From Eubacteriales bacterium (lineage in GTDB: Bacteria; Bacillota; Clostridia; Oscillospirales; CAG-272), in the NCBI GenBank assembly GCA_045656885.1, contig JAZORZ010000046.1, forward strand, positions 25 to 64,024: a stretch of DNA of 64,000 nucleotides, given 5' to 3'. Both the position numbers and the translations under genes were made by a program. Shown in pieces: positions 3,018 to 57,875 of the stretch (its first letter is position 1; each line of letters begins with the position of its first letter). Below the pieces are notes generated by a model. That model ran no database searches, had not been told where the DNA came from, and saw only the letters and a list, made by a program, of their open reading frames with translations.

Positions 3018-4850
3018 ATGACACGGGACGCCGACAGAATGAGCCGCCTGCTCCAAAAGGCAAACGATCTGCCGCTCTGCCCGGGCGTTTACATTATGCG
3101 CGATGTGCGCGGCAAGGTCATCTACGTGGGTAAGTCGCGCAAGCTCAAATCCCGCGTATCGCAGTATTTTCAAAACAGCGAAAAGAACCTCAAGACCGCG
3201 CGCATGGTCGCATCGGTCGAGGATTTTGACTGCTATGTTTGCGACAATGAGATGGAGGCACTCTCGCTGGAGAACACCCTCATCAAGCAATACAATCCCA
3301 AGTACAACATTCGACTCAAGGATGCAAAATCCTATCCCTATATCAAAATCACCAACGAGGAGTATCCCCGTCTGGTTTTCACGCGCAAAAGGGAAAAGGA
3401 TAAAGCGCGCTATTTCGGCCCCTATTCGGGCTCGGGAACTGCCTATTCGCTCATCGAGCTCTTGTCGCGCACCTTGCGCCTGCCCACCTGCTCGCGCCGT
3501 TTTCCAAAGGATATTGGCCGCGAACGCCCCTGCATTTATTACCAAATGGGGCGTTGCACAGGTCTTTGCACGGGTAACGTAACACCCGAGGAGCATAAAG
3601 CCACTATGCGGCTTGCCGCCGAGCTTTTGGGCGGTAAGGTCAAGGATGTCAAACGCGAGATCGAGACGCAAATGTACGCGCACGCCGAGGCGGAACGCTA
3701 CGAGCAAGCCGCCAAATGTCGCGATACCCTCACGGCTCTTGACCGCATCAGCGAAAAGCAAAAGGTGGTCGCATCTCCCGATACTGATCAGGACGTTATT
3801 GCTTTTTACGCTGACGAGCTTTGTGCTTGCATTTCGGTTTTCTATATCCGTGCAGGTATTCTGCAGGATAAAAACGACTTTTTGTTTGGCGCGGATGCGC
3901 TCCCCGAGCCCGAGGAGATCACTGCATTCCTTTGCCGTCATTACAGTATGCGCGAGGATATTCCGCCGCGTGTGCTTCTGTCCTTTGCCACTGATGAAGA
4001 AGAAATTTCTACTCTGAGCAACTATCTGCACCACATTTCGGGGCACCGGGTATATGTGCGCGTTCCCGAGCGGGGAGAGTTGCACACGCTTTGCGATATG
4101 GCGCAAAAGAATGCCGCCGAGCAAGCACGTCTGTTCGTGGCGCAAACCAACCGCACCGAGGGGACGCTCGTGCGCCTTTCGGAAATGCTCTCCTTGGAGT
4201 GCTATCCCGAACGCATCGAGGCATACGACATTTCCAATATCGGTTCGGAGCACCTGACCGCAGGCATGATCGTTTGCGAGGAAGGAAAATTCAAAAAATC
4301 CGATTACCGCACCTTCCGTATTGGCAGTGTAGAGGGAACGGACGACTATGCCTCTATGCGCGAGGCGCTTGACCGCCGTCTCTCACACCTGAGTGATGCC
4401 GAGGGTTCGTTCTCAAACCTACCCGACCTCATTCTGCTCGATGGCGGACGCGGACATGTTTCCACCGTTCGAGCACTCCTCGAAGAGAAGGGATTGGATA
4501 TTCCCGTGTTCGGTATGGTTAAGGACGATTACCACAAAACACGCGCCCTTTGCACCGAGACCGAGGAGATCTCCATTGCCCGACAGCAGGACGTTTTCAC
4601 ACTGCTTTACCGCATTCAAGAGGAAGTTCACCGCTACACAGTCGGTCGCATGACACAAGCCAAGCGCAAAACGGTGCGCACCTCATCCCTTACCAAAATC
4701 CCCGGCATTGGCGATGCCAAAGCCAAAAAACTCCTCGCTGCCTTCGGCGGACTCGCCGCCCTCAAAAAGGCAACCCGTGAAGAGATTGCTGCCGTGTCAG
4801 GCATTTCGGAGAAAGACGCGGACAATATTGTGGCGTATTTTGAGAAGTAG
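3018..4850 (+). CDS. uvrC: Excinuclease ABC subunit C
   Basis: 610 aa. GIY-YIG N-terminus (PGVYIMRD..GKVIYVGKS), UvrBC-interaction region and C-terminal (HhH)2. AAAGGAGG lies upstream. Confidence 0.95.
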   Translation: MTRDADRMSRLLQKANDLPLCPGVYIMRDVRGKVIYVGKSRKLKSRVSQYFQNSEKNLKTARMVASVEDFDCYVCDNEMEALSLENTLIKQYNPKYNIRLKDAKSYPYIKITNEEYPRLVFTRKREKDKARYFGPYSGSGTAYSLIELLSRTLRLPTCSRRFPKDIGRERPCIYYQMGRCTGLCTGNVTPEEHKATMRLAAELLGGKVKDVKREIETQMYAHAEAERYEQAAKCRDTLTALDRISEKQKVVASPDTDQDVIAFYADELCACISVFYIRAGILQDKNDFLFGADALPEPEEITAFLCRHYSMREDIPPRVLLSFATDEEEISTLSNYLHHISGHRVYVRVPERGELHTLCDMAQKNAAEQARLFVAQTNRTEGTLVRLSEMLSLECYPERIEAYDISNIGSEHLTAGMIVCEEGKFKKSDYRTFRIGSVEGTDDYASMREALDRRLSHLSDAEGSFSNLPDLILLDGGRGHVSTVRALLEEKGLDIPVFGMVKDDYHKTRALCTETEEISIARQQDVFTLLYRIQEEVHRYTVGRMTQAKRKTVRTSSLTKIPGIGDAKAKKLLAAFGGLAALKKATREEIAAVSGISEKDADNIVAYFEK

Positions 4851-4861
4851 GGGAGGCGTTT

Positions 4862-5042
4862 GTGGGGGATCTTTTGGAAAAGTTCCCCCACGCCCCCTCA
4901 AAACTTTTGCACAAAGGGTCAACAAAGATAATTCCAAGCTCACCGACGGACAGTCGACGCGAACACAATGTTCGCTTTGGCTACCGCGAGCTCCCAGGGA
5001 CCACCGAGACCCTGGTCGCTCGGAAAGTAGCTTGCTATCAGG
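4862..5042 (+). repeat. Structured repeat unit, copy 1 (forward), begins 11 nt after the uvrC stop
   Basis: Terminal hairpin GTGGGGGATCTTTTggaAAAGTTCCCCCAC (4862-4891), then the blocks ACAGTCGaCGC, hairpin GCGAACA-caa-TGTTCGC, and CCACCGAGACCC. It aligns with units at 8404, 11861 and, in reverse complement, 5096, 8663 and 31889. Confidence 0.85.
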
Positions 5043-5095
5043 TAATCTATCTAACCTTGTAGGGGACTGGCGTCCTCGACGGTCCGCCCCCACCG

Positions 5096-5274
5096 CAATC
5101 AACTCTCTTAGCGGATAGGGTAGAGGCCCCTAGCCGCTTGCGGCAGCAAAAGCGAGCGTGTCGCTCGCGCCGCCCGTCTATCAGCAAACTAACAAATTCA
5201 TATAAGAAATTTTTGTCAGCAAGTTTTTGGGAAGGGGTGTGGGGAAACCCTTTTCTCAAAAAGGGTTTCCCCAC
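5096..5274 (-). repeat. Structured repeat unit, copy 2 (reverse), ends 20 nt upstream of rsmD
   Basis: This is the reverse complement of the same unit. The terminal hairpin GTGGGGAAACCCTTTTtctcAAAAAGGGTTTCCCCAC lies at 5239-5274. Confidence 0.85.
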
Positions 5275-5293
5275 AAAAAAAGGAGTCAACACT

Positions 5294-8391: not shown

Positions 8392-8403
8392 GGACGCGAA
8401 TTT

Positions 8404-8577
8404 GTGGGGGAACTTCTTTCGAGAAGTTCCCCCACACCCCCTCAAGAACTTGCTGACAAAGGGTTAAAAAAACAAATCCGCAATGTACTAACGTACAGTC
8501 GGCGCGAGGATAAACCTCGCTCTTGCTCTCGCAAGCTCACAGGTGCCACCGAGACCCTGCTCGCTAGGAAGTTAGTT
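8404..8577 (+). repeat. Structured repeat unit, copy 3 (forward), begins 12 nt after the flippase stop
   Basis: Hairpin GTGGGGGAACTTCTttcgAGAAGTTCCCCCAC (8404-8435), ACAGTCGGCGC, hairpin GCGAGG-ataaa-CCTCGC, and CCACCGAGACCC. Confidence 0.85.
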
Positions 8578-8585
8578 TTGCATTC

Positions 8586-8653
8586 GGGCGATTCGTGAAT
8601 CACCCCTACAAAATGTTTTCAACTTCAACGTAGGGGCGACCATTGGTCGCCCG
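8586..8653. repeat. Two GTAGGGG-type GC hairpins at the centre of the fold-back element
   Basis: GGGCGATTCGTGAATCACCCCTAC and GTAGGGGCGACCATTGGTCGCCCG. Confidence 0.8.
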
Positions 8654-8662
8654 TTTTTTTGC

Positions 8663-8835
8663 CAATCAACTCTCTTAGCGGATAGGGTCTTGGAGGTGCC
8701 TAGCCGCTCGCGGCAGCAAAAGCGAGCGGTGCGCTCGCGCCGACTGTCCGTCCGAAAACTAACAAATTGATTTCAATATTTGTTGTGTGAAAGTTTTGAG
8801 GGGGCGTGGGGGAACTTTTTCAAAAGTTCCCCCGC
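8663..8835 (-). repeat. Structured repeat unit, copy 4 (reverse), ends 18 nt upstream of the valS promoter
   Basis: Reverse complement of the unit. The terminal hairpin lies at 8806-8835, with internal hairpins GCGAGCG-cac-CGCTCGC and GCCGC-ga-GCGGC. Confidence 0.85.
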
Positions 8836-8853
8836 AAATATTTTCATTATATA

Positions 8854-8882
8854 TTGACAATCTCCATTTTTTGTGATACAAT
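8854..8882 (+). promoter_or_regulatory. Sigma-A type promoter of the valS leader
   Basis: TTGACA, 17 nt spacer, TACAAT. Confidence 0.6.
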
Positions 8883-8884
8883 AA

Positions 8885-9151
8885 CTTGAAACACGATGAA
8901 AAAGAGGAGTACGCTTTTTTGCGATCTGCAGAGAGAGGGCGGTTGGTGCAAGCTCTTGGTCAAGGGAGCGGAAGTAGCTTTGGAGTGGTGTCGGGGAAGG
9001 GGAGCGATTTTCGTTCCTTGTGTAGTCGGCAACGGTTGCCACCGTTATAGGATTTGAGTGTGCATCTTTGCGCTTTTTTGGTGTAGATGCAAAATCAGGT
9101 GGTACCGCGTGCTTCCACGTCCTGATGATGGACGAGGGAGCTTTTTCTTTT
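8885..9151 (+). promoter_or_regulatory. T-box riboswitch leader (Val specifier GUA) with terminator
   Basis: AGAGAG..GGTTGGTGCAA stem I elements. Candidate specifier GAA-GTA-G at 8974-8976. T-box sequence AATCAGGTGGTACCGCG at 9093-9109. Terminator GCTTCCACGTCC/GGACGAGGGAGC plus TTTTTCTTTT at 9111-9151. Confidence 0.85.
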
Positions 9152-9195: not shown

Positions 9196-11850
9196 ATGGA
9201 TCAGTACAACGAACTGCCCAAAACATACGCGCCGTCGGAGTTTGAGGACAGAATTTATCAAGAATGGTGCGACAAGGGCTACTTTACGCCCGACGTTAAA
9301 AACGATGCGGAGCACTTCTCCGTAGTTATTCCGCCCCCCAACGTAACGGGTCAGTTGCACATGGGTCACGCACTCGACGAGACCCTGCAAGACATTCTCG
9401 TTCGTTACAAGAGAATGCAGGGCTTCAACACCCTTTGGATTCCCGGCACCGACCACGCAGGAATTGCCACGCAGATCAAGGTTGAAGAGCGTCTTCGCGT
9501 AGAAGAGGGCCTTTCCCGTTACGATCTCGGCCGCGAAAAGTTTTTGGAAAGAGTTTGGGATTGGAAGGATAAATACGAAGCGCGCATCACAGGACAGCTG
9601 AAAAAGCTGGGCGCATCCTGCGACTGGACACGTCAACGCTTCACCTTTGACGAGGGCTGCTCGCGCGCCGTTCGCGACGTATTTGTAAATCTTTACGAAA
9701 AAGGACTTATCTATCGCGGTTACCGCATTATCAACTGGTGCCCGCGTTGCCTCACGGCTCTCTCCGATGCCGAGGTAGAATATAAGGATCAACCCGGCCA
9801 CTTCTGGCACATCAAATATCCCATCAAGGGTGAGGACGGCTACGTTGAGGTTGCCACCACCCGTCCCGAGACCATGTTCGGTGACACCGCCGTTGCAGTT
9901 AACCCCGAGGACGAGGATATGAAGCACCTCATCGGCAAGACCCTCATTCTGCCCGTAGTTGGCAGAGAGATTCCCGTTATTGCCGACGATTACGTTGAAA
10001 TCGGCTTTGGTACCGGTTGCGTAAAGATCACCCCCGCACACGACCCCAACGATTTCCTTGTTGGTCAACGCCACAACCTCGAGCAGATCAAGGTTATGAA
10101 CGATGATGCTACCATGAACGCAGGTGCAGGTAAATACGAGGGCATGGATCGCTACGAATGCCGCAAGGCACTTGTTGCACAGCTTGAGGCAGAGGGATAT
10201 CTTGTTAAGACCGTTCCGCACGATCACAACGTTGGCGTTTGCTACCGTTGCGGCACCACCGTTGAGCCCATGACGTCCGACCAATGGTTCGTTAAAATGA
10301 AGCCCTTGGCACAGCCCGCTATCGAGGCGGTTGAAACAGGCGACATTCGCTTTGTTCCCGAGCGCTTCTCCAAGAACTACTTTAACTGGATGAACAACAT
10401 CCTCGACTGGTGCATCTCCCGTCAGCTTTGGTGGGGACACCGCATTCCCGCATTCTACTGCGATGATTGCGGCGAGATGACCGTTTCCCGTGAGGATATC
10501 ACCACCTGCCCCAAGTGCGGCGCTCCTGTTCATCAGGATGAGGACGTACTTGACACTTGGTTCTCGTCCGCACTCTGGCCCTTCTCCACAATGGGTTGGC
10601 CCGAAATGACCGAGGATCTCAAAAAATACTATCCCACAAGCGTTCTTGTTACCGGATATGACATCATTACCTTCTGGGTATCGCGTATGATTTTCTCGGG
10701 TCTTGAGCATATGGGCGAAAAGCCGTTTGATACCGTATTCATTCACGGTCTCGTTCGTGACGCGCAGGGTAGAAAAATGTCCAAGTCGCTCGGCAACGGC
10801 ATCGATCCTCTCGAAATCATCGACAAATACGGTGCCGACGCACTCCGCTTTGCACTCTCTACGGGCAACTCTCCCGGAAACGATATGCGCTTCTCGGATG
10901 AAAAGATGGAAGCCGCACGTAACTTTGCAAACAAGCTGTGGAACGCATCTCGCTTTGTTCGTATGAACCTGACAATCGACAAGGTTGAGCTTCCCGAAAT
11001 CGGTGCTCTCAGTGCCGAGGATAAGTGGATTCTGACCGAATACAACAAGACCGTAGCAAGTGTTACAAGTGCGCTCGATCACTTTGAAATCGGCGTAGCC
11101 CTCAGCGCAATCTACGACTTCATTTGGGATATTTTCTGCGACTGGTACATTGAACTGACCAAGAGCCGCCTCTCCGAAAAGGATACCGAGGGCAATATTG
11201 TTGCTCAAAACGTACTTTGCTACGTTCTCACGGGCACGCTCAAGCTCCTGCATCCCTTTATGCCCTTCATCACCGAGGAAATTTACGGTGCACTGCCTCA
11301 CGCAGGTGATGCCGAGAGCATCATGATCTCCGCATATCCCAAGGCAAACGATGCACTGAGTTTCCCCGAGGAATCCCTGCAGCTCTCTCGCGTAATTGCC
11401 GCAATCAAGGCAATTCGTAACCGCCGCAATGAAATGAACGTTGTTCCTTCTCGCAAGGCAAAGGTTTATATTGCAACCGCATATCCCGAGTCCTTTGGCG
11501 AGAACACCTATCCCTTCTTTGCACGTCTTGCATCTGCCGCCGACGTAGCAGTTGCCGCATCCTTTGATGACGATGCCGTCAGTGCCGATAATGCAGTTCA
11601 AATCATTACCGATTCTGCAACCATCTATCTGCCGCTGGCTGACCTCGTTGACACCGAAAAGGAACGCGCACGTCTTGAGGGCGAAGCAAAGAAGCTCGAA
11701 GGCGAAATCGCACGTCTTGTTGGCAAGCTTTCCAACGAGGGCTTCGTTGCCAAAGCACCTGCCGCCGTTGTTGATGCCGAACGCGCCAAGCTCGCTAAAT
11801 ACCAAGAAAACCTCGAGGGCGTTAAAAACGCACTTGAAAAGTTGAAATAA
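9196..11850 (+). CDS. valS: Valine--tRNA ligase
   Basis: [24 protein letters not shown]...[15 protein letters not shown] (HIGH motif)...KMSKSLGN (KMSKS motif), with a C-terminal coiled coil. AGGAGG lies 9 nt upstream of the ATG at 9196. Confidence 0.96.
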
Positions 11851-11860
11851 GGATTTTTAC

Positions 11861-12038
11861 GTGGGGAAAACTTCTTGCAAGAAGTTTTCCCCACACCCCT
11901 TTCAAGAACTCTCGCACAAAAAGTCAAAAAGAAAAGTCCTTGCTTCACTCACGGACAGTCGGCGCAAGTCGCATGACTTGCTTTTGCTGCCGCTAACGGT
12001 CAGCCACCACCGAGACCCTGCCCGTTAAGAGAGTAGAT
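11861..12038 (+). repeat. Structured repeat unit, copy 5 (forward, solo), begins 10 nt after the valS stop
   Basis: Hairpin GTGGGGAAAACTTCTTgcAAGAAGTTTTCCCCAC (11861-11894), ACAGTCGGCGC, hairpin GCAAGTC-gca-tGACTTGC, TTTTGCTGCCGC, and CCACCGAGACCC. Confidence 0.85.
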
Positions 12039-12058
12039 AGCATATGGAAAACTAAATT

Positions 12059-12280
12059 TGTAGGGGGCGACGTCCTCGACGCCCCGTTTTTGCGAAATTA
12101 TATAAGAATTAAAAATCAACCGGTAGGGGAGCGCCTTGGTGCTCCCGAAAAGAAACGATTATCGTGCGTAAAAACGGGCGATTCGTGAATCGCCCCTACA
12201 AGGATATATAGAAAAAACGGGGGCGAAGAGATTGCTTGCAATCTCGTGGCGGCTTGCCGCCTTCCATCAGGTCGCCGTTT
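12059..12280. repeat. Train of GTAGGGG-type GC hairpins
   Basis: GTAGGGGGCGACGTCCTCGACGCCCC (12059-), GGTAGGGGAGCGCCTTGGTGCTCCCG (12122-), GGGCGATTCGTGAATCGCCCCTAC (12176-) and GGGGGCGAAGAGATTGCTTGCAATCTCGTGGCGGCTTGCCGCC... (12219-). The same units recur at 57624-57875. Confidence 0.8.
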
Positions 12281-14421: not shown

Positions 14422-14549
14422 ACAAAAACCGCCCCACTCCCATCAACAGGAGTGGGGCGGTGCCGTTATACCGCTTTCCATCGAAAACTTGCCAATGGAC
14501 TTGCATTTTTGAAAAATCAACGCTCGGTTGTTTTTTCTTTTTTGCACAA
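14422..14549 (+). repeat. Direct repeat DR1 (about 128 bp), left flank of the lipoprotein cassette
   Basis: ACAAAAACCGCCCCACTCC..GGAGTGGGGCGGTGCCGTTATACCGCTTTCCATCGAAAACTTGCC...TTGCACAA. The first ~66 nt are near-identical to 18690-18821, and the remainder is diverged. Confidence 0.85.
14429..14460. terminator. GC hairpin inside DR1 (terminator-like; the U-tract is on the minus strand)
   Basis: CCGCCCCACTCC-catcaaca-GGAGTGGGGCGG. An A-run lies 5' on the plus strand, which is a T-run 3' on the minus strand. Confidence 0.6.
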
Positions 14550-14730: not shown

Positions 14731-17700
14731 ATGAAAAAAATGAGACTCTTTCTTGCGCTTGCTCTGGTGCTTGCGTTGCTTGTGTCGTCTCTTTCGGCTT
14801 GTAATTTGCTTGGTGGCGGTTCCGATAATAAGCCCGGCGAAGGCACGACTGACAATGGGCAGAATAGCGGCAACTTAAACGGAGGTAGCGACATTCCGAG
14901 TGGCGAAGATCCCGATCAACCGGGCGGTAGTACCCCCGGCGGCGAAGATCCCGGTCAACCGGACATTAGCACCCCCGATGGTGAAGATCCCGATCAACCG
15001 GGCGAAAATACTCCCGGCGACGTTATCGGTTGGGGCCCCGACTTTGGCGGTGGCGAAATGCTTGAGTACCTGGCTATTGATGTTCAGAAAGGTAGCGGCT
15101 CGTTCATACTGAATGCTACCGGCAAGCTTGAATCCCCCGAGGTCGTCATTGCCTCGCTTGGAAAAACCTATTCCTATACCACGGAGATAGATTGCGGTGA
15201 TCACTTTGAATATCTCTTTGTAATCAGCGCCGACGGAATGAAGGTTGGTGATGGATATTCGGCATACGTTCAGTTCAACGGTGGTGACAGATACGGCTTT
15301 AATATTTCGCTTTATGACAGCAAGCCCGGCCCCGATGAGGAAAAGATCGGTAGCTTCTTGGGATTCAATACAGACGGAAGTAAGTCGATCGACGGAAAAT
15401 CTTTGGAGCTGAAATATGGCGACGAAAACGCCGTCATTTATCTTGTTTTCGACGGTGTTGCTCCCATGCTTCACATAACAGATCAAAAGCTTGACAAAAC
15501 TTATTCCGTTGATTCGGTTGAAGAGATTGACGGTTACAGGATCTACAAGTTTATTCTTTACACCGTATTTATGGCGGATGGCGATGAAATCAGATTTACC
15601 GGTGAATACAGCACCGCGTCCGAACACTTTGATTTTCAGTTTAGTCTGAGTGTGAGTGTTATCGGCGCGCCCATCGAGCATAAGCACGTATTCATTGATG
15701 GAAAATGTGAATGTGGCGAGGTCGATCCCAATTATGGTTATGAAGAGGAAAACCGTTCGGAGTTCTTTGGCTTCTACGATCCTGAAAGCAAGTTGGTTAT
15801 TGCAGACCTTACTGTAAACCGTGGTGAGGGTTTCTCTGTTTATGCACTCTTTAGGCACAATGCACCTCTGCGTGCTTACATCAATGGCTTCAACATTCCC
15901 GTTGAGCAGCCCGGTTTTATTGAGAGTGGGGCTGTTGAAACGATGGAGATAGACGGCGAAAGCTACTATGCAGTGCACTTTGAAGTTCCCCCTCTGCTTG
16001 CAGTAGGAAGGTATAATGTCGAACTTCTTTATTTGGCATCGCTCGATGACGAGGAATGTGCATGGATTACGGTTAGAGTGACAGAGGTTTATGAACCTAT
16101 GGGAAACTATCTTGGCGTAAATGCCGAGCCGGTAGAGGAATACTCCGATTCGGCTACTCTTTATGTTGAGGGGGATACCGTATATCTCTATGTTATCTTT
16201 GACGGTTCTGTTGAAAATCTTTCCCTCTACTGTACCGATCTTTACATACCTTATCTCGTCCACGAAACAGTGGATATCTACAACGGATGTTTTTACTATG
16301 CATTTTCTCTGCCTACTTCAAATATGAGTTATGGTGAGGAATACTATTTCAACGGTAGTTGCGGTACTACCGGAGAAAATCAGACCAACTTTTATTTTTC
16401 TATTCGGGTGCTTGACCCTAATGGCGGGGGAGGAGAAATCCCCGATGATCACGAGCACTTCTTCAGTGACGGAAAGTGCTATTGTGGTGCGATCGATCCA
16501 GACTACGTGCCCACAGTAGACATTACCGATCTACTCTTGGGTGCCATGACTCCGGAGATGGTGGGACCTAGCTGGGATATCGGCATTTCCCTCGAAAAGG
16601 AGATAGAGCTCTACTTTGTGTTCAAGAGCAAGGTAGATGTGACCTCTATCAGCTTTTTGGGCGACGAGCTGAACTTCTACGAGGTATCGTCCTATGGTGA
16701 CTATTATGTAGTCGCAGCAATCATTTATCCCTATGAAAAGTATGAAAGCGGTCTCATCACGGTTACCTATAACGTGGAGCATGGTTTCGCGTCCTGCGAC
16801 ATTTTGCTTACTATCGGCTCAGCCGACGGGGGTGACGATGAAATACCTCCTCGCTTCCTTGGTGTCATGACCTCCGAGGACGAGGGCTACTCAGAGAGTG
16901 TGTCGGTCACCGTTGGTCGCGAGTCCGTGATCTACCTGGTATTCGACCGCGAGATCTCCTGTGAACGGATTATCTTCTATGATGCCGAAATATGGGCAGA
17001 GGGCGGTTATTGGATGAATGAGTACTACTTAATACCGGTCAGACTTCCCGTATTTACTACCATTGAAAATGCACCGTCATACTTCTTCAGCTATGGAAAT
17101 AACGAGGAGGGCGGTTGTATCATCGTTAACGTCCTTCCTGAGGATATTGAGCCACCTGTGTTTATTGGTGCTCAGTCCGACTCCGTCAGCGAGATGAACG
17201 AAGCAACGGTAACCGTTCACCCCTCTATGAATGGGCTTGGCAAGATATATGTTCACTTCAGTGACGTCTTTCGTATTGACGCCATCATGCTTAGCGGAAT
17301 GGAGCTGGACAACGGATCCTACGGTTGGAACGGTAATACCATCTGCATTGATCTTGACTGTGTTCCGTTTGTCGGTATGATTGGCGAATATGATATTTTG
17401 ATTATCGGGTCCTTTGGTAATTACGAGCCGTATTTACCTATTTATCAGAATCTTGTTTTGAAGATTGAGATTGGCGAGGAGCCCTCCTTCCTTGGTATTA
17501 AGACCGAGTACGGTGAGCTTTCTGACGGAATTGTAATCAAACCCGGTGAATACGTAAACGCCTACCTTATTTTCGATACACCCGTGTACGTACAAGGACT
17601 TTACGTTGATTCCTATTCCAGTATCTCGGTTGATAGCACAGGATACGAGCTTTCACCCGGTCAGTATGCATATAACGTTTGGTTAAGTACGGAGCAGCTT

Positions 17701-18689: not shown

Positions 18690-18728
18690 AACAAAACCGC
18701 CCCACTCCAATCAGCAGGAGTGGGGCGG
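18690..18728 (-). terminator. Intrinsic terminator of the SASP gene
   Basis: On the minus strand: CCGCCCCACTCC-tgctgatt-GGAGTGGGGCGG followed by TTTTGTTT. Confidence 0.75.
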
Positions 18729-18821
18729 TGCCGTTATACCGCTTTCCATCGAAAGCTTGTCAACGGGCTTACATTTGTTGAAAAAAGCAACACGTGGTTG
18801 TTTTTCTCACTTCTTGCACAA
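18690..18821 (+). repeat. Direct repeat DR2 (about 132 bp), right flank of the lipoprotein cassette
   Basis: Aligns with 14422-14549. It contains the ssp terminator hairpin. Confidence 0.85.
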
Positions 18822-23637: not shown

Positions 23638-25398
23638 ATGAAAAAACTGAGTTTTTTGTTAGCAATCATTCTGCTGTTATCTGTACCGCTAATGACGGCA
23701 TGCAAGCGTCAAGTCCCACCACAAGAGACACCGCAGGTACAAACAACAACCGAAGCCACTACACCGCCCGTTATCGATCAACCCGTGGTGCATGCAAGCA
23801 TTTCGGCGGAGCAGTTGGCAAGCTATGAGATCATCTATGCAAAAGACTCCTCAAAGGAAGTCAAAACGGCTCTGCAAGCCATTCCGAATATTCTTTTTGA
23901 TGCCTACGGAGTCATTCTCAATCAACGCTCCGACCTCTTTTACGAGGGCGTTGCATCCTTGGCAAAGGGGCAGTATGAAATTCTCATCGGCCAAACCAAC
24001 CGCGAGGAGAGTGCAACCTTCCTTTCCAATCTGAAATGGGACGATTACGGTTACGGCATTGTTGGCGATAAGCTCGTCATCGCAGGCAAAAACGAGGACG
24101 GCACGCTCAAGGCACTGCGTGCATTCCTTGCGCACATCGAAGGGAATACGGATGAAGTGTTCTTCACCAACCAAAATCAACTGCTTGTGCAAAAGCAATA
24201 CCCCTATCAAAACATCACGATCAACGGCATTGCGGCAACCGATCTTGCTATTCTTTGTAACGAGGAGGAGCTTGGCGGTTTGGCGCAAATTATCCGCGAT
24301 GCTATCATCGAGTCATGCGGCATTGCCGTGCCGATCGTAACCGATAGCCCCGAGGATAGCGTGCAAAATAAAATCGTCATCGGGCACACCAATATGATCT
24401 TCATTGATCCCGCACCCGAAGACATTATCTATCCCACAGGCAAGGAGTTTTACATCAGTCAGTTTGCAGGCGGCATTTTTGTTGATGCCAACACATCAGC
24501 GGGATATTATTCTGCCGCTTCGTACATAGTCACATCGATTTCTCCCGATTGCAAGGGCAGTGACGTTGTTGTGCTCGAGCAAGGAAAACACATGGGCAAG
24601 GATGCACTCCCCGTAATGAGCTTTAACCTGATGGCGGGCTCGCAAAGCAATCCTGAGTCCAAGCGTCTTGACGCCGTTGTAGAGATCATTCTCAAATACC
24701 GTCCTGCAGTCGTTGGTGTGCAAGAGGCGACCGACACTTGGATCGCTCTTTTGAATCAACGCCTTGGTGACATTTACACCATCGTAGGTGACGGCAGAAA
24801 TGAAACAAGGGGAGACGAGCACAGTGCCATTCTGTATATCACCGCAGAGTTTGATTGCATCGAGAGCGGAACAAAGTGGCTCTCCGATACCCCCGACGTT
24901 CCGGGTTCTAAATTTGCAGAATCCGATTACACGCGCATCATGACCTACGTGCACCTCTCTCGCAAGAGTGACGGCCGAGAATTTTTGCACGTCAATACAC
25001 ATCTTGATTACGGCACGACCGATGCAAAAGAAGCCGTAAAGGTCGAACAAATGGAGGTGCTTTTCCGCGAGATCGGAAAATTCTCTTACCTTCCCACCGT
25101 TATCACGGGTGACTTTAACGCTACGGTTGATTCTCCTGTATACAACCGAATTCAGCAAGAAGGATACCACAATTTCGGCGCCGAATTTCTCGAAACGTCC
25201 CCCACCTATCACGGCCTTATGGGTACCACGGGCGAGCCCAGCCACATTGATTTCATTCTTTACAACGGTCGAATATACAATGATTACTACTTGATGGATA
25301 TGTATTACCGCATTTGCAACGAGCGTGTAGATAACGAAAACGTATCTGACCACTATCCCATTTTAACCGTTTTGTATTTCTCCCCCACAGGGAAATAA
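23638..25398 (+). CDS. Lipoprotein with an N-terminal duplicated alpha/beta region and a C-terminal EEP domain, paralog 1
   Basis: Signal/lipobox MKKLSFLLAIILLLSVPLMTAC. EEP motifs: MSFNL, VGVQE, VNTHLD, TGDFN, SDHYP. Confidence 0.88.
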   Translation: MKKLSFLLAIILLLSVPLMTACKRQVPPQETPQVQTTTEATTPPVIDQPVVHASISAEQLASYEIIYAKDSSKEVKTALQAIPNILFDAYGVILNQRSDLFYEGVASLAKGQYEILIGQTNREESATFLSNLKWDDYGYGIVGDKLVIAGKNEDGTLKALRAFLAHIEGNTDEVFFTNQNQLLVQKQYPYQNITINGIAATDLAILCNEEELGGLAQIIRDAIIESCGIAVPIVTDSPEDSVQNKIVIGHTNMIFIDPAPEDIIYPTGKEFYISQFAGGIFVDANTSAGYYSAASYIVTSISPDCKGSDVVVLEQGKHMGKDALPVMSFNLMAGSQSNPESKRLDAVVEIILKYRPAVVGVQEATDTWIALLNQRLGDIYTIVGDGRNETRGDEHSAILYITAEFDCIESGTKWLSDTPDVPGSKFAESDYTRIMTYVHLSRKSDGREFLHVNTHLDYGTTDAKEAVKVEQMEVLFREIGKFSYLPTVITGDFNATVDSPVYNRIQQEGYHNFGAEFLETSPTYHGLMGTTGEPSHIDFILYNGRIYNDYYLMDMYYRICNERVDNENVSDHYPILTVLYFSPTGK

Positions 25399-25418
25399 CG
25401 TAAAAGGAACTTTGAGGT

Positions 25419-27236
25419 ATGAAAAAAATCAGTTTTTTGATAGTTGTTTTAATGCTTGCGCAATGCTTCCTTTTGGTTGCATGCAATTCGAACGAGCATA
25501 TTCAAAATGAGACTACACCGGATTTGACTACCTCCACCTCAACCACGCCCAACGGAACGGCGCCTCAAGAAACGACGCCTCAAGAAACGACACCTGAAGT
25601 AACGACTCCCGAGCAAATCGATCCTGTTGGCCCCTATGCTGACGCGCAAATTGAGGCAACTGACATTTCCAAATACACGCTCATTTATGCACAACTCAAT
25701 TCTCAATCGGTCGTCGATCAGCTTTTGCAGATTCAAGCGCAAATAGCAGCTATGTATGGCAATGAGCTTAGCGCTCAAACCGATGACTGCTCGGTTAGTG
25801 ATTTTGAAATTCTGATCGGTGATACCAACCGCGAAGAGAGCAAGAGCTTTTTGCAAGGACTTCTTTTTGAAGACTACGGCTATGCGATCATTGGCAACAA
25901 GATCGTCATTGCGGGAAACACCATGCAGGGAACCGTTAATGCGGCAAAGCTGTTTTTGGAGCATTTGAAGGACGGCGACCACAGCGAGGTATTCTTCAGC
26001 AATCAAAACCAATATCTCTATCGCCACCCTTATACGCATGATTCGTTTGTTATTAACGGTATCGATGCATCGCGCGCAAAGCTCGTTGTAAACACAGAGG
26101 GAGCTGATATGCAAATTGCAAAGAGCATTGCCTACAAGTCGCTGGAGCTTTGCGGTCGCACTCCCCAAATCGTTACCGATGCAGAGGTTTCTTCTCAAGA
26201 TACCTTGATCATTGTAGGCGCCTCTCTCCACGTTCCCGCGGCTATGCAAGCCGAGTGGAATACCGCAAAGGCAAGCGGCGGATGGGCGTATTCCTATTAC
26301 ATAGGCAGTAACAATACCGTTGTTTGGATCAACACCGACACGCAGGAGGGATATAACGCTTTGAATTACAATGTTATTTCTTCGATCAATGCGACTGCAG
26401 GTGCAAGCCTGCAGCTTGACACAGGACTTGTTCAAGTACCGCCGACCTTCTCGGTTATGAGCTTTAACGTTTACGTCAGCTCCTTCAATGCGGCGCGTAC
26501 ACAACGAGTTCTCGATACGATTTTGGAGAACGCTCCGTCTGTATTTGGCGTACAAGAAGCAAGCGTTGCATGGATGAACGCATTGAATAGCGGCTTGGGC
26601 GATATTTATGCCACTGTTGGCGTAGGTCGCGATGGCGTTGGCGTAGGCGAGCACAGTGCTATCTTTTACCGCAAGGATCAGTTCACCTTGATTGAAAGCG
26701 GTACAAAATGGCTCTCCTATACGCCTGATGTGGTCGCTTCCAAGCTTTCGCAGGCAAATTACCCCCGTATTATGACGTATGCTGTTTTGGAACGAAATTG
26801 TGATGGCGTTCAATTCCTTTACGTCAACACGCACCTTGATCATGACGGCAAAAACGGCATTGAAGGTGGAGAAAAGGTAAGACAAGAGCAGATCGAAATT
26901 TTGATCGCCGAGATCAACAAGCTTGGTAACTACCCAACGATCGTAACGGGTGACTTCAACGTTACACAAGAGGCATCGGCTTACACAACCATGATAGCCA
27001 ATGGATTTATTGACGCATCCCGCGTTTCCAAGGCGGGTGAGAAAAAGCCCACTTATAACGGCATGAACGATAACTATGAGGGCGTTACCATCGACTATAT
27101 TTTTGTTTCGGGCTCCTTGGCAAACTCTGTAGATGCCTACACCGTTTGCCCCGCAAAGAGAAACGATGAGTGGGTATCCGACCACAATGCCATTGTTGCA
27201 ACAATCACGTTACCGATTCCCACAACCCAAAAATAA
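25419..27236 (+). CDS. Lipoprotein with a C-terminal EEP domain, paralog 2
   Basis: Signal/lipobox ...FLLVAC and a TPQET-repeat linker. EEP motifs: MSFNV, FGVQE, VNTHLDH, TGDFN, SDHNA. Confidence 0.88.
   Translation: MKKISFLIVVLMLAQCFLLVACNSNEHIQNETTPDLTTSTSTTPNGTAPQETTPQETTPEVTTPEQIDPVGPYADAQIEATDISKYTLIYAQLNSQSVVDQLLQIQAQIAAMYGNELSAQTDDCSVSDFEILIGDTNREESKSFLQGLLFEDYGYAIIGNKIVIAGNTMQGTVNAAKLFLEHLKDGDHSEVFFSNQNQYLYRHPYTHDSFVINGIDASRAKLVVNTEGADMQIAKSIAYKSLELCGRTPQIVTDAEVSSQDTLIIVGASLHVPAAMQAEWNTAKASGGWAYSYYIGSNNTVVWINTDTQEGYNALNYNVISSINATAGASLQLDTGLVQVPPTFSVMSFNVYVSSFNAARTQRVLDTILENAPSVFGVQEASVAWMNALNSGLGDIYATVGVGRDGVGVGEHSAIFYRKDQFTLIESGTKWLSYTPDVVASKLSQANYPRIMTYAVLERNCDGVQFLYVNTHLDHDGKNGIEGGEKVRQEQIEILIAEINKLGNYPTIVTGDFNVTQEASAYTTMIANGFIDASRVSKAGEKKPTYNGMNDNYEGVTIDYIFVSGSLANSVDAYTVCPAKRNDEWVSDHNAIVATITLPIPTTQK
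25563..25607 (+). repeat. 3 x 15-bp in-frame tandem repeat (TPQET/TPQET/TPEVT linker)
   Basis: CCTCAAGAAACGACG twice, followed by CCTGAAGTAACGACT. Confidence 0.85.
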
Positions 27237-27315
27237 AACAAGCAGCATACATCAGCATCCGGCTTTTGGAGCTTGCTCTCCAATCCGACAAAATGTAAAA
27301 AAGGAGTAAACGGAT

Positions 27316-29103
27316 ATGAAAAAAGTGAGTTTACTGTTGGCAGTTTTAATGCTTATGCAATGCTTCTTTTTAGTAGCTTGCAACTCCAATAAAAACCAGG
27401 AAACCACTCCCGAGGTAACCTCTTTCGAGGCGACCACCCCTGCCGAAGCACCGGTAGAGCCCGATAACAGCATTAAAATTTTGGCGGCTGATATTTCCAA
27501 ATACAATCTCATTTGTGCACAGCGCACCCCTGCCAACATCATGAGCCAGTTCTGGCAGCTGCAGTCGCAGATCAAAAAGATGTATGGCACAGAACCTCTT
27601 GCCGAAACCGATTATTTGGAAGAGATCGAGTTTGAGATCCTCGTTGGTGCTACCAACCGTAAAGAGAGCCAAGATTTTTTATCGGGGCTTCTTTGGGACG
27701 ACTACGGCTACACCATTGTGGGCAACAAAATCGTTATCGCGGGTCACACCGCCGAAGGTACGCTCTCTGCTATTAAGCTTTTCTTGGAGCACATTAAGGC
27801 GGGGGACCACACCGAGGTATTCTTCAGCAACAAAAATCAGTATTTGTTCTGTTACCCTTACGTTTCCGATACCTTCCTTATCAACGGCATTGACGTTTCT
27901 CGCGCAAAGATCGTTGTTAACGGTGGGGGAAGTGACAAGCAGATCGCACAGATCCTTTCCGATAAATCCCTGGAGCTTTGCGGTCGCCGCCCCGAGATCA
28001 TCACCGATGCCGAGGTGACAGAAGGGGATAAGCTGATCGTCATTGGTTCGTCTGCACACGTTCCTGCTGCAATGCAAACAGAATGGGACGCCGCGCAGGA
28101 AACAATCGAGGGACAGTTCTCTTACTACATCAACAACACAGCGGATATTCTGTGGATTCATACCATCGTTCTTGAGGGTTACAGTGCCATCAACCGTAAT
28201 ATTTTGCCGTTGGTACAATCCAACTCCACGGCAACACTCACACTCGAAACAGGACTTGTCAAGGTTCCTCAGATTTTCTCTGTAATGAGCTTTAATGTTT
28301 TTGTAAGCTATGCAGATGCTGCACGCAAGCAGCGTGTTATCGATACCATTCTCGAAAACACACCGTCTGTATTTGGTGTACAGGAGGCGAGCGTTGACTG
28401 GATGAACACCCTCAAAAAGGGACTTGGCGATGTTTATACCGCTGTTGGTGAAGGCCGCGACGGTGGAAATAACGGTGAATACAGTGCTATCTTTTATCGC
28501 ACCGATAAGTTTACTCTGATTGAAAGCGGTACAAAGTGGCTTTCTGACACTCCCAACACGGTGGCTTCCTACTATACCTATAAGGATCCCGAAACAAACA
28601 TCGTACACCGTGCAAACTTCCCGCGCATTATGACCTATGCTGTTTTGGAACGTAAGAATGACGGTGTGCGTTTCATCTACGTCAACACGCACCTTGACCA
28701 CAACGGTAACAACAGTGTAGAAGTTGCGGAACAAGTGAGACAAGGACAAATCGAAGTTCTGCTTGCCCAAATTGAAGAACTCAGAACCAAGTTTGGCAAC
28801 CTGCCCACTGTTGTAACGGGTGACTTTAACGTTACTCCCGAAGCAACTGCCTACACCACAATGATTGGTGCGGGCTTCCTCGATTCCTCACACGTTGCAA
28901 AAGAGGGGGAAATCAAACCCACCTATAATGATAGGAACGACAGTTATGAAGGTGCTATCATCGACTACATCTTTGTATCTCCCGAGCTTGTAAGCGCAGT
29001 TGATACCTACACCGTTTGCCCGGCAAAGAGAGACGGACAGTGGATCTCCGACCACAACGCAATCATTGCAACCATTACGATGCCCGTTCCCGAAGCCGAA
29101 TAA
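27316..29103 (+). CDS. Lipoprotein with a C-terminal EEP domain, paralog 3
   Basis: Signal/lipobox ...FFLVAC. Roughly 60-65 percent identical by eye to paralog 2 across the EEP domain, with the same catalytic motifs. Confidence 0.88.
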   Translation: MKKVSLLLAVLMLMQCFFLVACNSNKNQETTPEVTSFEATTPAEAPVEPDNSIKILAADISKYNLICAQRTPANIMSQFWQLQSQIKKMYGTEPLAETDYLEEIEFEILVGATNRKESQDFLSGLLWDDYGYTIVGNKIVIAGHTAEGTLSAIKLFLEHIKAGDHTEVFFSNKNQYLFCYPYVSDTFLINGIDVSRAKIVVNGGGSDKQIAQILSDKSLELCGRRPEIITDAEVTEGDKLIVIGSSAHVPAAMQTEWDAAQETIEGQFSYYINNTADILWIHTIVLEGYSAINRNILPLVQSNSTATLTLETGLVKVPQIFSVMSFNVFVSYADAARKQRVIDTILENTPSVFGVQEASVDWMNTLKKGLGDVYTAVGEGRDGGNNGEYSAIFYRTDKFTLIESGTKWLSDTPNTVASYYTYKDPETNIVHRANFPRIMTYAVLERKNDGVRFIYVNTHLDHNGNNSVEVAEQVRQGQIEVLLAQIEELRTKFGNLPTVVTGDFNVTPEATAYTTMIGAGFLDSSHVAKEGEIKPTYNDRNDSYEGAIIDYIFVSPELVSAVDTYTVCPAKRDGQWISDHNAIIATITMPVPEAE

Positions 29104-31888: not shown

Positions 31889-32066
31889 CAAATCAATTTT
31901 CTGAGCGCGCGGGGTCTTGGTGGTGCCCACGCGCTTGCGATAGCAAAAGCGAACCTTGCGTTCGCACCGACTGTCTATTAGTAAAGCAACGACTTATATA
32001 TATGATATATTTGCGAGAAAGTTTTTGAAGGGGTGTGGGGGAACTTTTCTCAAAAAGTTCCCCCAC
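31889..32066 (-). repeat. Structured repeat unit, copy 6 (reverse, solo), upstream of recA
   Basis: Terminal hairpin GTGGGGGAACTTTTtctcAAAAAGTTCCCCCAC at 32035-32066. In reverse complement, the internal features read ACAGTCGGTGC, GCGAAC-gcaag-GTTCGC, TTTTGCTATCGC and CACCACCAAGACCCC. Confidence 0.85.
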
Positions 32067-32175
32067 ATCTTTTTGCCAACTCTCTTTTTGGAAAATTGAC
32101 TCCTTAAAATGCCAACAAAAACCGAAAAATGCAAAATAAAATGCCAAAAACGGAAAAATATATTCCAAAAAGGTA

Positions 32176-57623: not shown

Positions 57624-57875
57624 TTGTAGGGGCCACGAGATTGCTTGCAATCTCTTGGCAGCTTACCGCCTTCCATTAGGTCGCCCGCCTTTCGTTTGCT
57701 TGTGATTTTTGGTGCGGGGCGTCGAGGACGTCGCCCCCTACAAAAGTTGTTTTGGAATCCCTCGCGTAAATGGATTTACAATTTTCGCAAAGCAAAAACG
57801 TGTGAAATGATTGATTCTCCGTAGGGGCGATTCACGAATCGCCCGAAACAAACGATTATCTTGCATAAAAAAGCC
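57624..57875. repeat. Train of GTAGGGG-type GC hairpins between convergent XRE genes
   Basis: GTAGGGGCCACGAGATTGCTTGCAATCTCTTGGCAGCTTACCGCC.., GGGGCGTCGAGGACGTCGCCCCCTAC, and GTAGGGGCGATTCACGAATCGCCCGAAACAAACGATTATCTTGCATAAAAAA. All three have counterparts in 12059-12280. Confidence 0.8.

Follow-up and report, generated by a model that had tools for sequence, protein, structure and literature searches.

We report a previously undescribed family of about 70 copies of a folded repeat unit of about 180 bases, which is confined to a small group of uncultured ruminant-gut Clostridia, a subclade of an Oscillospiraceae-like genus. Six copies lie in the 64,000-nucleotide stretch of DNA analysed here (the window). 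The reading that we favor, and hold at about even confidence, is that of an old, lineage-restricted, BIME-like family of mosaic palindromes in the 3' untranslated regions (UTRs) of genes, in which the first hairpin, H1, serves as a barrier and the stems are maintained at the DNA level. A preliminary description had interpreted the repeat as structured and non-coding, with the choice between RNA and single-stranded DNA left undecided, and that interpretation was supported.

Repeat search, alignment, nhmmer and a covariance model together recovered the six copies at the sites and on the strands given in the preliminary description, and the conserved blocks and the H1 and H2 variants listed there were all present. 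The alignment behind the six copies (A1) had a mean column identity of 71%. The covariance-model matches in the window, which span only the portion 3' of H1, were at 4885-5035 (+) and 5095-5245 (-), at 8429-8580 (+) and 8662-8812 (-), and at 11888-12041 (+) and 31889-32041 (-). The copies (c1 to c6), the parts of c1 and the short REP-like units around the copies are as follows.

4861..5042, + strand: copy c1, 3' of the uvrC stop codon TAG (4848-4850); its G-run begins 13 nt past the stop
4861..4892, + strand: H1 of c1, TGT-GGGGGATCTTTT-GG-AAAAGTTCCCCC-ACG, a GC-clamped hairpin whose closing triplets co-vary
4893..4904, + strand: third-strand segment of c1, CCCCCTCAAAAC, which mirrors the 3' arm of H1 and is complementary, in parallel orientation, to its 5' arm
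4905..4958, + strand: AT-rich variable spacer of c1, containing AACTYTC, one half of a possible closing helix, with the conserved block GGACAGTCGRCGC at its end
4959..4975, + strand: H2 of c1, GCGAAC-ACAAT-GTTCGC, followed by TTTGGCTACCGC
4989..5020, + strand: H3 of c1, AGCTCCCAGGG-ACCACCGAGA-CCCTGGTCGCT, a third hairpin that is absent from the preliminary description
5056..5095, no strand assigned: REP-like unit (GTAGGGG and a hairpin) between the convergent copies c1 and c2
5096..5275, - strand: copy c2, antisense to rsmD, its H1 abutting the rsmD ribosome-binding site
8403..8577, + strand: copy c3, 3' of the stop codon of a flippase-like gene
8586..8653, no strand assigned: REP-like hairpins between c3 and c4
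8634-8652: bidirectional terminator-like hairpin GGGCGACCATTGGTCGCCC with a T-run, within the REP-like hairpins between c3 and c4
8663..8836, - strand: copy c4, its H1 18 nt upstream of the -35 box (8854) of the valS promoter
11860..12038, + strand: copy c5, 3' of the valS stop codon TAA (11848-11850)
12059..12280, no strand assigned: four REP-like hairpins in train (GTAGGGG / CCCCTAC type), downstream of c5
31889..32069, - strand: copy c6, located by repeat search, alignment and covariance model

The unit is built, in order, of H1, the third-strand segment, the AT-rich spacer, H2 and H3. All of the parts named in the preliminary description were found, but H3 had been missed and the stem of H1 was 3 bp longer than had been given. 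The block CCACCGAGACCC is the loop and 3' arm of H3 and not a plain conserved block. H3 had the strongest covariation in the unit, with seven of its ten pairs varying on both sides, and the closing pairs of H1 also co-varied (TGT/ACA, TGC/GCA and GCA/TGC). The covariation score of the named structure was 0.289 compared with 0.147 +/- 0.007 for shuffled alignments, none of the 500 shuffles reached the observed value, and controls in which the structure was slid scored 0.05-0.10. Covariation in H2 and H3 thus exceeded both kinds of control, which bears out the claim of a structured, non-coding repeat whose stems are variable yet paired, and it was kept when more copies were aligned, the outcome being unchanged on 54 distinct copies that came mostly from other species. 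In 12 copies the H3 loop contained a nested, structured insert of 78 nt. A T·C / C·T internal loop recurred in H3 (58 cells); read on the other strand, it would be a tandem G·A pair.

Several other features of the unit were considered and rejected. Two further helices, a closing one over long range (AACTCTC/GAGAGTT) and one around H2, were conserved or rich in G·U and had no covariation. Neither inspection by eye nor a scan found a consensus-like -35/-10 pair in the AT-rich spacer in either orientation, so a small-RNA gene driven by a promoter of its own was no longer considered. H1 did not qualify as an intrinsic terminator, as it is followed by ACACCCC and neither strand has a T-run or U-tract after it; H2, with TTTTGCT next to it, weakly resembles a terminator.

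Covariation also links H1 to the segment downstream of it, which behaves as a third strand. Wherever the 5' arm of H1 contained TTCTT (30 copies), the third segment had AAGAA, and AAGAA was missing in 25 of the 26 copies without TTCTT (Fisher's test of the association, 5e-15). The middle C-runs were correlated in length (rho 0.93), as were the A-run and the T-run (rho 0.65), and an extended variant (GGAGAGGGGGAAAA / TTTTCCCCCTCTCC / CCTCTCCCCTTTT) obeyed the same rule. The three blocks GGGGGAA / TTCCCCC / CCCCCTT co-varied in their run lengths and interruptions. Judged by this layout, the purine run and pyrimidine run of H1 and the pyrimidine segment that follows make up a potential intrastrand triplex of the PIT/TMECO type, a class of repeats that includes pairs in inverted orientation (PMC4666352). 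The element resembles PIT/BoxC/TMECO repeats (Hoyne et al., 2000; Holder et al., 2015, PMC4666352) in having three consecutive blocks of which the third mirrors the second, dozens of intergenic copies, frequent inverted pairs and a tie to local rearrangement. It differs from them in that its G/A-rich triplex part is only 6-8 triples long and runs on into an apical stem, in which purines take over as the third strand (AAGAA over TTCTT/AAGAA), in its polarity relative to genes and in its fused tail of 120 nt.

The nhmmer search of the 2.02-Mb source genome showed the family to be far larger than the six copies first described, with 109 matches of which about 63 were near-full copies and at least 16 copies were truncated. 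At least 10 sister species had 40-50 or more copies apiece. The family was detected in 17 of the 61 sampled genomes of the genus and in none of the 140 other genomes of the order, and the plasmid and phage collections that were searched yielded no match to the element. No Rfam 15 model matched the element at either gathering or permissive thresholds (best E of 0.1 or higher); the sole Rfam match in the window was a T-box leader. Such families break metagenome-assembled genomes, and many copies were located at contig ends here.

The placement of the element relative to genes was strongly biased. Fifty-seven of 71 H1 ends lay 7-28 nt past the stop codon of a co-oriented open reading frame of at least 80 codons, compared with 11 of 57 for the tail end and 9.7% for random positions. 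The orientation noted for the six copies, with the H1 end toward the neighbouring gene, is therefore true genome-wide. For about 79% of the stop-proximal copies, no more than 15 nt separated the stop from the base of H1. About 20% of the family, c2, c4 and c6 among them, was antisense to or upstream of genes and was still kept across species. About half of copies had a GC-rich hairpin, and about a quarter a canonical hairpin with a T-run, within 110 nt downstream. REP-like motifs occurred within 110 nt downstream of 46% of copies compared with 3% of controls, and convergent pairs with REP-like units between them were found at c1/c2, at c3/c4 and at a minimum of four further loci. Relatives without the element had a terminator hairpin in the same place 3' of valS. 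Fold-back of convergent pairs was also considered, and c1/c2 and c3/c4 were 63% alike; this is below the family mean of 70% and indicates no selection for long arm-to-arm pairing.

The family appears at orthologous sites across species. When the occupancy of such sites in relatives was compared, as the preliminary description had proposed, copies were shared at the same positions: c2 had orthologous copies in at least nine related species, c3 was 95% identical to its orthologue in genome G003, and of the 28 copies in G003, most had flanks that mapped next to a copy in the source genome (G000). No pair of copies within the source genome was more than 82% identical. Between orthologous copies, the 78-nt insert and REP units were present or absent as precise indels, c4 had its 3' third exchanged wholesale between G000 and G003, and H1-only and 5'-half-only forms occurred at orthologous sites; at the c5 site, genomes G003, G006 and G002 had only H1 and the third-strand module. 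Truncated copies lost the 3' end and kept H1, and at several orthologous sites the tail was lost without replacement. Copies that shared an H3 arm were 69.7% identical elsewhere compared with 69.3% for all pairs, and the hairpin variants behave as cassettes that are shuffled among copies independently of the backbone. Paired variation is for that reason not clean evidence of selection on each copy.

The identity of orthologues was bimodal, at about 77-85% or 93-100%. Some orthologous copies were 95-100% identical whereas third codon positions of valS, whose promoter near c4 precedes a T-box leader, were 78% identical, and some were 95-98% identical compared with 87% for the neighbouring T-box leader. 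A sequence-specific function or recent recombination would fit identities of 95-100% better than would a plain hairpin barrier. At some loci the high identity reaches into the flanking promoter or gene, which may reflect recombination between lineages and confounds a reading as purifying selection, of which orthologue identity is a suggestive sign.

The stems of H2 and H3 changed almost entirely by Watson-Crick substitution. They contained 5 G·T and 6 A·C cells compared with about 760 Watson-Crick cells (less than 1% G·T), and 118 double-change cells compared with the 5 G·T among about 770. The near absence of G·T pairs fits complementarity at the DNA level better than it fits a typical selected RNA helix. 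The G·T and A·C counts were symmetric and very low, and they speak to the mode of change and not to the strand.

These counts bear on the explanation that survives best beside our own, a cis-acting structured RNA selected as RNA. Such an RNA would be a multicopy 3'-UTR domain in which the hairpins, the conserved loops (CCACCGAGA and GACAGTCGGCGC) and a triple helix (U·A-U / C+·G-C) adopt a defined fold that serves as a protein-binding site or shields the mRNA at its 3' end; we regard it as possible but rather doubtful. Loops and linkers are conserved while stems vary, as would be expected, yet G·U is almost missing from the co-varying stems (5 in about 770 cells) and the hairpin variants are shuffled as cassettes, with no in-place evolution. 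Eighty percent of the copies are in sense orientation past a stop codon, but one fifth are antisense to the neighbouring gene. Optional structured expansions at the tips of H1 and H3, which are common in large RNAs, the greater identity of some orthologous copies than of the neighbouring T-box leader, and the presence of the 78-nt insert inside a tRNA-like sequence, behind a consensus-like promoter match and upstream of a real tRNA gene, are consistent with a selected RNA. However, the long-range closing helix did not co-vary, Rfam had no match, and the tail was dispensed with at several orthologous sites. The pyrimidine-pyrimidine internal loops of H3 lie on the sense strand, and it is the antisense that would have tandem G·A. 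Together with the potential purine-motif triplex of the opposite strand, which is the stabler one at neutral pH, these loops suggest that the structured species may be something other than the sense RNA.

A non-autonomous transposable element, either a MITE or an IS200/IS605- or RAYT-type derivative in which H1 and H3 would be subterminal hairpins for a trans-acting transposase, is unlikely. Its copy number is high, its architecture is strand-specific with unlike hairpins at the two ends, its complementarity is of the DNA-level kind, with Watson-Crick pairs only, and it is accompanied by REP-like, GTAG-type units. Searches for a partner, however, were negative in the source genome, which is 98.5% complete: there was no match to Y1 transposase (PF01797, RAYT), for which control genomes matched, to TnpB (PF07282) or to the IS110 DEDD recombinase (PF01548), and nhmmer detected no ORF-bearing long form between 5' and 3' ends. 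The ends of the element (TTTGT-GGGGG... / ...AGAGAGTTGWTT) are not inverted repeats, and alignments that included the flanks revealed no target-site duplication. Neither the transposase nor the terminal inverted repeat of a known IS or MITE, an identity raised in the preliminary description, was thus found. Species differ by precise indels of nested modules, as a mobile element might, but the sites are orthologous across species, no two copies are above 82% in identity, and the plasmid and phage searches were empty. Among specific candidates, an IS200/IS605-derived element (PATE) or the omega-RNA end of TnpB was rejected with no match to PF01797, PF07282 or Rfam, and an IS110 bridge or seek RNA was rejected with no PF01548 match in the genome. 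A link to DUF559 was also rejected on the basis of the stronger of two DUF559 matches in the genome (C53, the weaker one being on C1), which was not bracketed by H1 modules and had different purine/pyrimidine hairpins at its 3' end.

Another reading, which we consider very unlikely, makes the H1 module an RNA triple-helix cap (C+·G-C and U·A-U) at a fixed distance past stop codons, which would protect 3' ends with an effect like that of ENE/MALAT1 elements. Ribosomes would unwind the cap and so couple translation to mRNA lifetime, and the H2/H3 tail would dock a lineage-specific protein. Least credible of all, and highly improbable, is a tRNA-derived, SINE-like retroelement with an H3 that came from a T-arm and spread by reverse transcription: apical H3 (CAGGG-ACCACCGAGA-CCCTG) does resemble the tRNA T-arm GCAGG-TTCGAGT-CCTGT, the same 78-nt insert lies at AGG|T junctions in H3 and in two tRNA-like pseudogenes, and the genome has one reverse transcriptase, but that sole enzyme (about 310 aa, with a VTG motif and a structured region upstream) looks retron-type, the Rfam tRNA model matched no copy in the window, truncations lack the 3' and not the 5' end, opposite to target-primed reverse transcription, and copies have no poly-A or other 3' tail.

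The comparisons show that the family reached about 50-70 sites in the subclade's ancestor and then stayed at orthologous sites. Present change consists of cassette exchange between copies, strictly Watson-Crick double changes in stems, precise gain and loss of nested palindromes and 3' truncation that spares H1. Under the favored reading of a BIME-like family, the complementarity of stems would be kept at the DNA level, likely via hairpin-templated correction and ectopic gene conversion. Because about 80% of copies follow a gene in the same orientation, 7-28 nt past its stop, and about half have a GC-rich hairpin downstream, transcription of such copies in the 3' UTR of the gene is expected; this transcription, the 3' ends and the effects on mRNA and translation are predicted from sequence and position. 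Within the mRNA, H1 may act as a barrier to 3'-to-5' exonucleases and mark the end of the transcript. An H1 base no more than 15 nt from the stop codon could also obstruct the terminating ribosome, at a ribosome-collision distance, as with stop-proximal REPs of Escherichia coli; in work cited in PMC12306157, ribosomes stall at REPs that lie less than 16 nt from a stop codon, and translation is lowered. Selection would keep H1, and the remainder of the element would be dispensable.

By analogy, the element resembles a variant of the REP/BIME- and triplex-type repeats of E. coli and would introduce no new principle. Gene conversion has been proposed for REP/BIME (Higgins et al., 1988, and Liang et al., 2015, as cited in PMC12306157; PMC2817692), and we propose that the element evolves by gene conversion too. 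As with REP/BIME of E. coli and other Proteobacteria, the element is a high-copy extragenic palindrome in mosaic clusters with other motifs, often in convergent pairs and in clusters of alternating orientation; it lies in 3' regions that are predicted to be transcribed, in many cases within about 15 nt of a stop, and its stems stay paired through double changes. Unlike the REP palindrome of 20-40 nt, the element is about 180 nt long with three different hairpins and a fixed polarity. It also lacks the GTAG head, as GTAGGGG with a hairpin forms a separate short family near 46% of copies, and it differs in that no RAYT gene was found, in its Clostridia host and in its restriction to part of one genus. 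Other structured intergenic repeats of Firmicutes, BOX, RUP and SPRITE of Streptococcus pneumoniae and bcr1 of the Bacillus cereus group, are likewise modular and gene-adjacent, measure 100-200 nt, have predicted stable folds and are co-transcribed with their genes; terminal inverted repeats or target duplications occur in them, and for some an IS partner is known. No sequence similarity to these families was found for the element, no Rfam family matched it, and neither terminal inverted repeats, target duplications nor an IS partner were seen.

If this reading is right, the biology of REP/BIME- and triplex-type repeats moves from Proteobacteria into uncultured gut Clostridia. The element is informative in its fixed polarity, its tight placement at stop codons, its co-varying third strand and its nested palindromes that come and go as precise indels. 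It provides material for testing whether hairpins close to stop codons adjust translation termination and mRNA decay in bacteria other than E. coli, whether intrastrand triplex motifs have a function, and whether correction at the DNA level and the exchange of cassettes can keep stems paired in the absence of selection on RNA. Such families also mimic covariation-supported RNA motifs in comparative screens.

All six units (c1 to c6) that the preliminary description had placed in the window were found there, and they can be aligned over about 185 nt with a mean column identity of 71%. As the size of the family, six was far too low: a profile made from these units gave 109 matches in G000, the genome to which the window belongs (2.02 Mb, 79 contigs, 98.5% complete), where about 63 near-full copies and at least 16 further copies with the 5' part only are present. 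Rfam gave no family at the element sites in the window. The valS T-box leader at 8887-9127 (RF00230, 136 bits) is the sole curated RNA of the window; it is preceded, upstream of valS, by a near-consensus promoter at 8854-8882.

The anatomy of the unit was read from an alignment of 50 copies with flanks and from a cleaner 44-copy alignment (A2). From the 5' to the 3' end, the parts are:
1, T-rich lead-in
2, H1, a GC-clamped hairpin of 12-16 bp, plus three further closing pairs
3, pyrimidine-then-purine segment (the third strand), e.g., CCCCTTTC-AAGAAC
4, variable AT-rich spacer
5, conserved block GACAGTCGGCGC
6, H2, stem of 6-7 bp
7, block TTTTGCTGCCGC
8, H3, a 10-11-bp hairpin with the conserved loop CCACCGAGA
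9, tail AAGAGAGTTGWTT

H1, H2 and the blocks had been recognized from the outset, but H3 had been overlooked as a hairpin. The unit may be expanded at the tip of H1 by additional stem-loops and in the loop of H3 by a 78-nt structured insert (12 copies).

All three hairpins and the third strand co-vary. The closing triplets of H1 do so as TGT/ACA (29 copies), TGC/GCA (10) and GCA/TGC (5), and mutual information picks out precisely the pairs of H2 and H3. In A2, the covariation score of the named structure was 0.289 compared with 0.147 ± 0.007 for shuffled alignments, none of 500 shuffles attained the observed score, and slid controls scored 0.05-0.10; the paired stem variation proposed earlier thus holds for H2 and H3. 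Both-sided changes occurred at four of six H2 pairs and seven of ten H3 pairs, and the covariation was repeated on 54 distinct copies, mostly from other species, aligned to a covariance model. Two further candidate helices, one long-range (AACTCTC/GAGAGTT) and one around H2, had compatible sequences but no covariation and are not claimed.

The segment that follows H1 mirrors the 3' arm of H1 and is therefore parallel-complementary to the 5' arm. Among 56 parsable copies, AAGAA was present in the third segment of all 30 copies with TTCTT in the 5' arm and absent from 25 of the 26 without it (Fisher's test, 5e-15), although these counts exaggerate the number of independent events because the copies are mutually related. 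In the same 56 copies, arm and third segment agreed in the length of the middle C-run (rho 0.93), and A-run length followed the T-run length of the third segment (rho 0.65). In one variant the purine run is longer (GGAGAGGGGGAAAA), and the third segment, CCTCTCCCCTTTT, corresponds to it. Judged from sequence, H1 and the third segment are arranged in a way that might allow an intrastrand triplex, for which the candidate structure would be of the pyrimidine motif (C+·G-C, T·A-T) on the sense strand and of the purine motif on the opposite strand. The PIT/BoxC/TMECO repeats of Escherichia coli have the same plan, and inverted pairs of them also occur (PMC4666352).

The polarity of the element and its position bias behind stop codons are both strong. 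Fifty-seven of 71 H1 modules lie 7-28 nt (mode 13-15) after the stop of an open frame that has the same orientation and at least 80 codons, as do 47 of 55 full-length copies, compared with 11 of 57 for the tail end of the element and 9.7% for random genome positions. The claim that the H1 end faces the neighboring gene is therefore valid genome-wide. If the hairpin is taken to include the three closing pairs, its base is at most 15 nt from the stop in about 79% of the stop-proximal copies. The fifth of the copies not placed behind a stop are antisense members of convergent pairs or lie immediately upstream of genes; the rsmD ribosome-binding site directly abuts the H1 of c2 in 10 of 10 species examined, and 18 nt separate the end of c4 from the -35 box in the promoter of valS. 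Two further kinds of feature lie in the window:
5056-5095, 8586-8653, 12059-12280 and 57624-57875, second, short repeat family
8634-8652, canonical bidirectional terminator after c3

Units of the short family are variable GC hairpins headed by GTAGGGG/CCCCTAC, as in classical REPs. A REP-like unit (GTAGGG/CCCTAC plus hairpin) occurs within 110 nt downstream of 46% of the copies compared with 3% of control regions. About half of the copies are followed by a perfect GC hairpin, and a quarter by a hairpin and then a T-run.

Three modes of change were seen in the family: cassettes are exchanged, stems undergo Watson-Crick double changes, and nested indels occur. The stem cells of H2 and H3 comprise about 760 Watson-Crick, 5 G·T, 6 A·C and 58 pyrimidine-pyrimidine combinations, the last forming a single recurrent internal loop, and in the 54-copy alignment 118 cells were doubly and 5 singly changed. 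Stem changes are Watson-Crick only. The 44 copies carry 20 distinct H3 arms and 14 distinct H2 arms; copies with the same H3 arm are 69.7% identical elsewhere (69.3% for all pairs) and have H2 arms in common at the background rate only. Between G000 and a second species (G003), c4 is 98% identical outside the 3' third and 73% within it, where another common variant has been exchanged in. The hairpin variants thus behave as cassettes. Three kinds of small palindrome (the REP-like units, the 78-nt insert of H3, and one of 38 nt inserted in a REP loop) are gained or lost as precise indels between orthologous copies or species. Stems that stay paired behind stop codons might also belong to a 3'-UTR domain genuinely selected as RNA, a reading that, set beside change of this kind, we consider rather unlikely.

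The element is a real, large and lineage-restricted family of mosaic structured repeats. Among 61 genomes sampled within the genus, 17 were positive by the covariance model, and about 11 of these have 19 to 50 or more copies apiece, whereas 140 genomes from elsewhere in the order (90 genera, including seven further genera of the same family) were all negative; the plasmid and phage collections contained nothing resembling the element. The closest relatives are uncultured Eubacteriales/Oscillospiraceae MAGs, chiefly from animal gut or fecal samples, including ruminants. Copies within G000 are at most 82% identical (mean 70%). The sites are old and orthologous: the flanks of nearly all of 28 G003 copies examined map beside a G000 copy, and therefore the family spread before the species split and has moved little since. 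Orthologue identity is bimodal (about 77-85% or 93-100%); for the same genome pair, identity is 78% at the third codon positions of valS and 87% in the T-box leader. Constraint could lie behind the high values, which at some loci extend into the next promoter or gene, so that inter-lineage recombination may also be a source.

In element-free relatives, a hairpin occupies the corresponding place behind valS, and the site forms a series among the species:
G011 and G008, ordinary terminator
G005, terminator-like hairpin
G001, different purine/pyrimidine hairpin
G000, full copy
G014, long copy
G009, damaged copy
G004, 5' half
G003, G006 and G002, H1 and third strand only (in G002 a bare module)

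Decay of the element thus runs from the 3' end. In the G003 orthologue of window 4850-5290 (L004, contig C38), the convergent copies c1 and c2 have merged at the H2 palindrome to give a single large palindrome, and both H3 hairpins and the spacer are gone; deletions of inverted TMECO pairs are described likewise in E. coli strains. In G009 (L006, C60, about 500-800), a small ORF (about 100 aa; MKLSKEEKKALLQAYNEKQNKKYLL...) lies between c2 and a truncated c1, where G000 has a REP-like hairpin only.

Aligned flanks of the copies contained neither terminal inverted repeats nor target-site duplications, and G000 contained no long, ORF-bearing form of the element and no Y1/RAYT, TnpB or IS110 gene, whereas control genomes gave matches. 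The unit thus showed no sign in G000 of being the end of a known IS or MITE with a transposase. H1 modules do not bracket the DUF559 gene of G000 (best match, on contig C53) either. A non-autonomous transposon with its enzyme absent from the present assembly is improbable beside such old sites.

Within the genus, the 78-nt module is distributed separately and more widely, occurring in multiple copies in species without the 180-nt element (e.g., at least six in G034). It also occurs, with identical junctions (AGG|T...GAGAC|C), in two tRNA-like pseudogenes of G000:
C8:12614-12799 (L136, 215-400), decayed Pro-like tRNA sequence
C63:21060-21230, minus strand (L135), decayed Met-like tRNA sequence

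These adjoin real tRNA-Pro and tRNA-Met genes, and Rfam gave no match for them. Their module (about 78-130 nt) is the structured module that makes the long H3, inserted after AGGT in the T-loop or variable region; a TTGACT-17-TATAAT match resembling a promoter, read by eye, lies upstream of the Pro-like sequence. The single reverse transcriptase of G000 (C36:8445-9440, minus strand; about 310 aa, YCDD and VTG motifs) has a structured non-coding stretch upstream and no adjoining repeat element, and looks like a retron enzyme. Despite the tRNA-like hosts, a retroelement derived from tRNA is very improbable.

Other repeats in the window include three tandem paralogous genes at 24814-29087 (spacing about 1.83 kb, DNA identity 66-80%; families D1-D7, D11 and D15), at least two of which start with a lipoprotein-like signal, MKKISFLIVVLMLAQCFLLVACNS. 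Three head-to-tail 39-nt repeats at 14901-15022 (D10) would, if coding, give a 13-residue repeated motif. A 92-nt direct repeat (14425-14516 and 18693-18784; 89% identity; D9) includes a strong hairpin, AAAACCGCCCCACTCC...GGAGTGGGGCGGT.

In build and working, the element is like BIME/REP clusters and PIT/TMECO repeats. It differs from REPs in having no GTAG head and no RAYT, and it was assignable neither to MITEs nor to IS200/IS605 derivatives. Our preferred reading, held with middling confidence, is a mosaic repeat maintained as DNA and transcribed as 3' UTR, with H1 as an obstacle to exonucleases and ribosomes. Stem complementarity would be maintained at the DNA level by hairpin-templated correction and ectopic gene conversion, a process that Higgins and colleagues, as cited in PMC12306157, put forward for REPs. 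Because of their location, most copies are probably transcribed within the 3' UTR, where H1 would be the functionally important and persistent part. It may serve there as an exonuclease barrier and, where the stop codon is no more than 15 nt away, may also hinder the terminating ribosome, as stop-proximal REPs do in E. coli according to work cited in PMC12306157.
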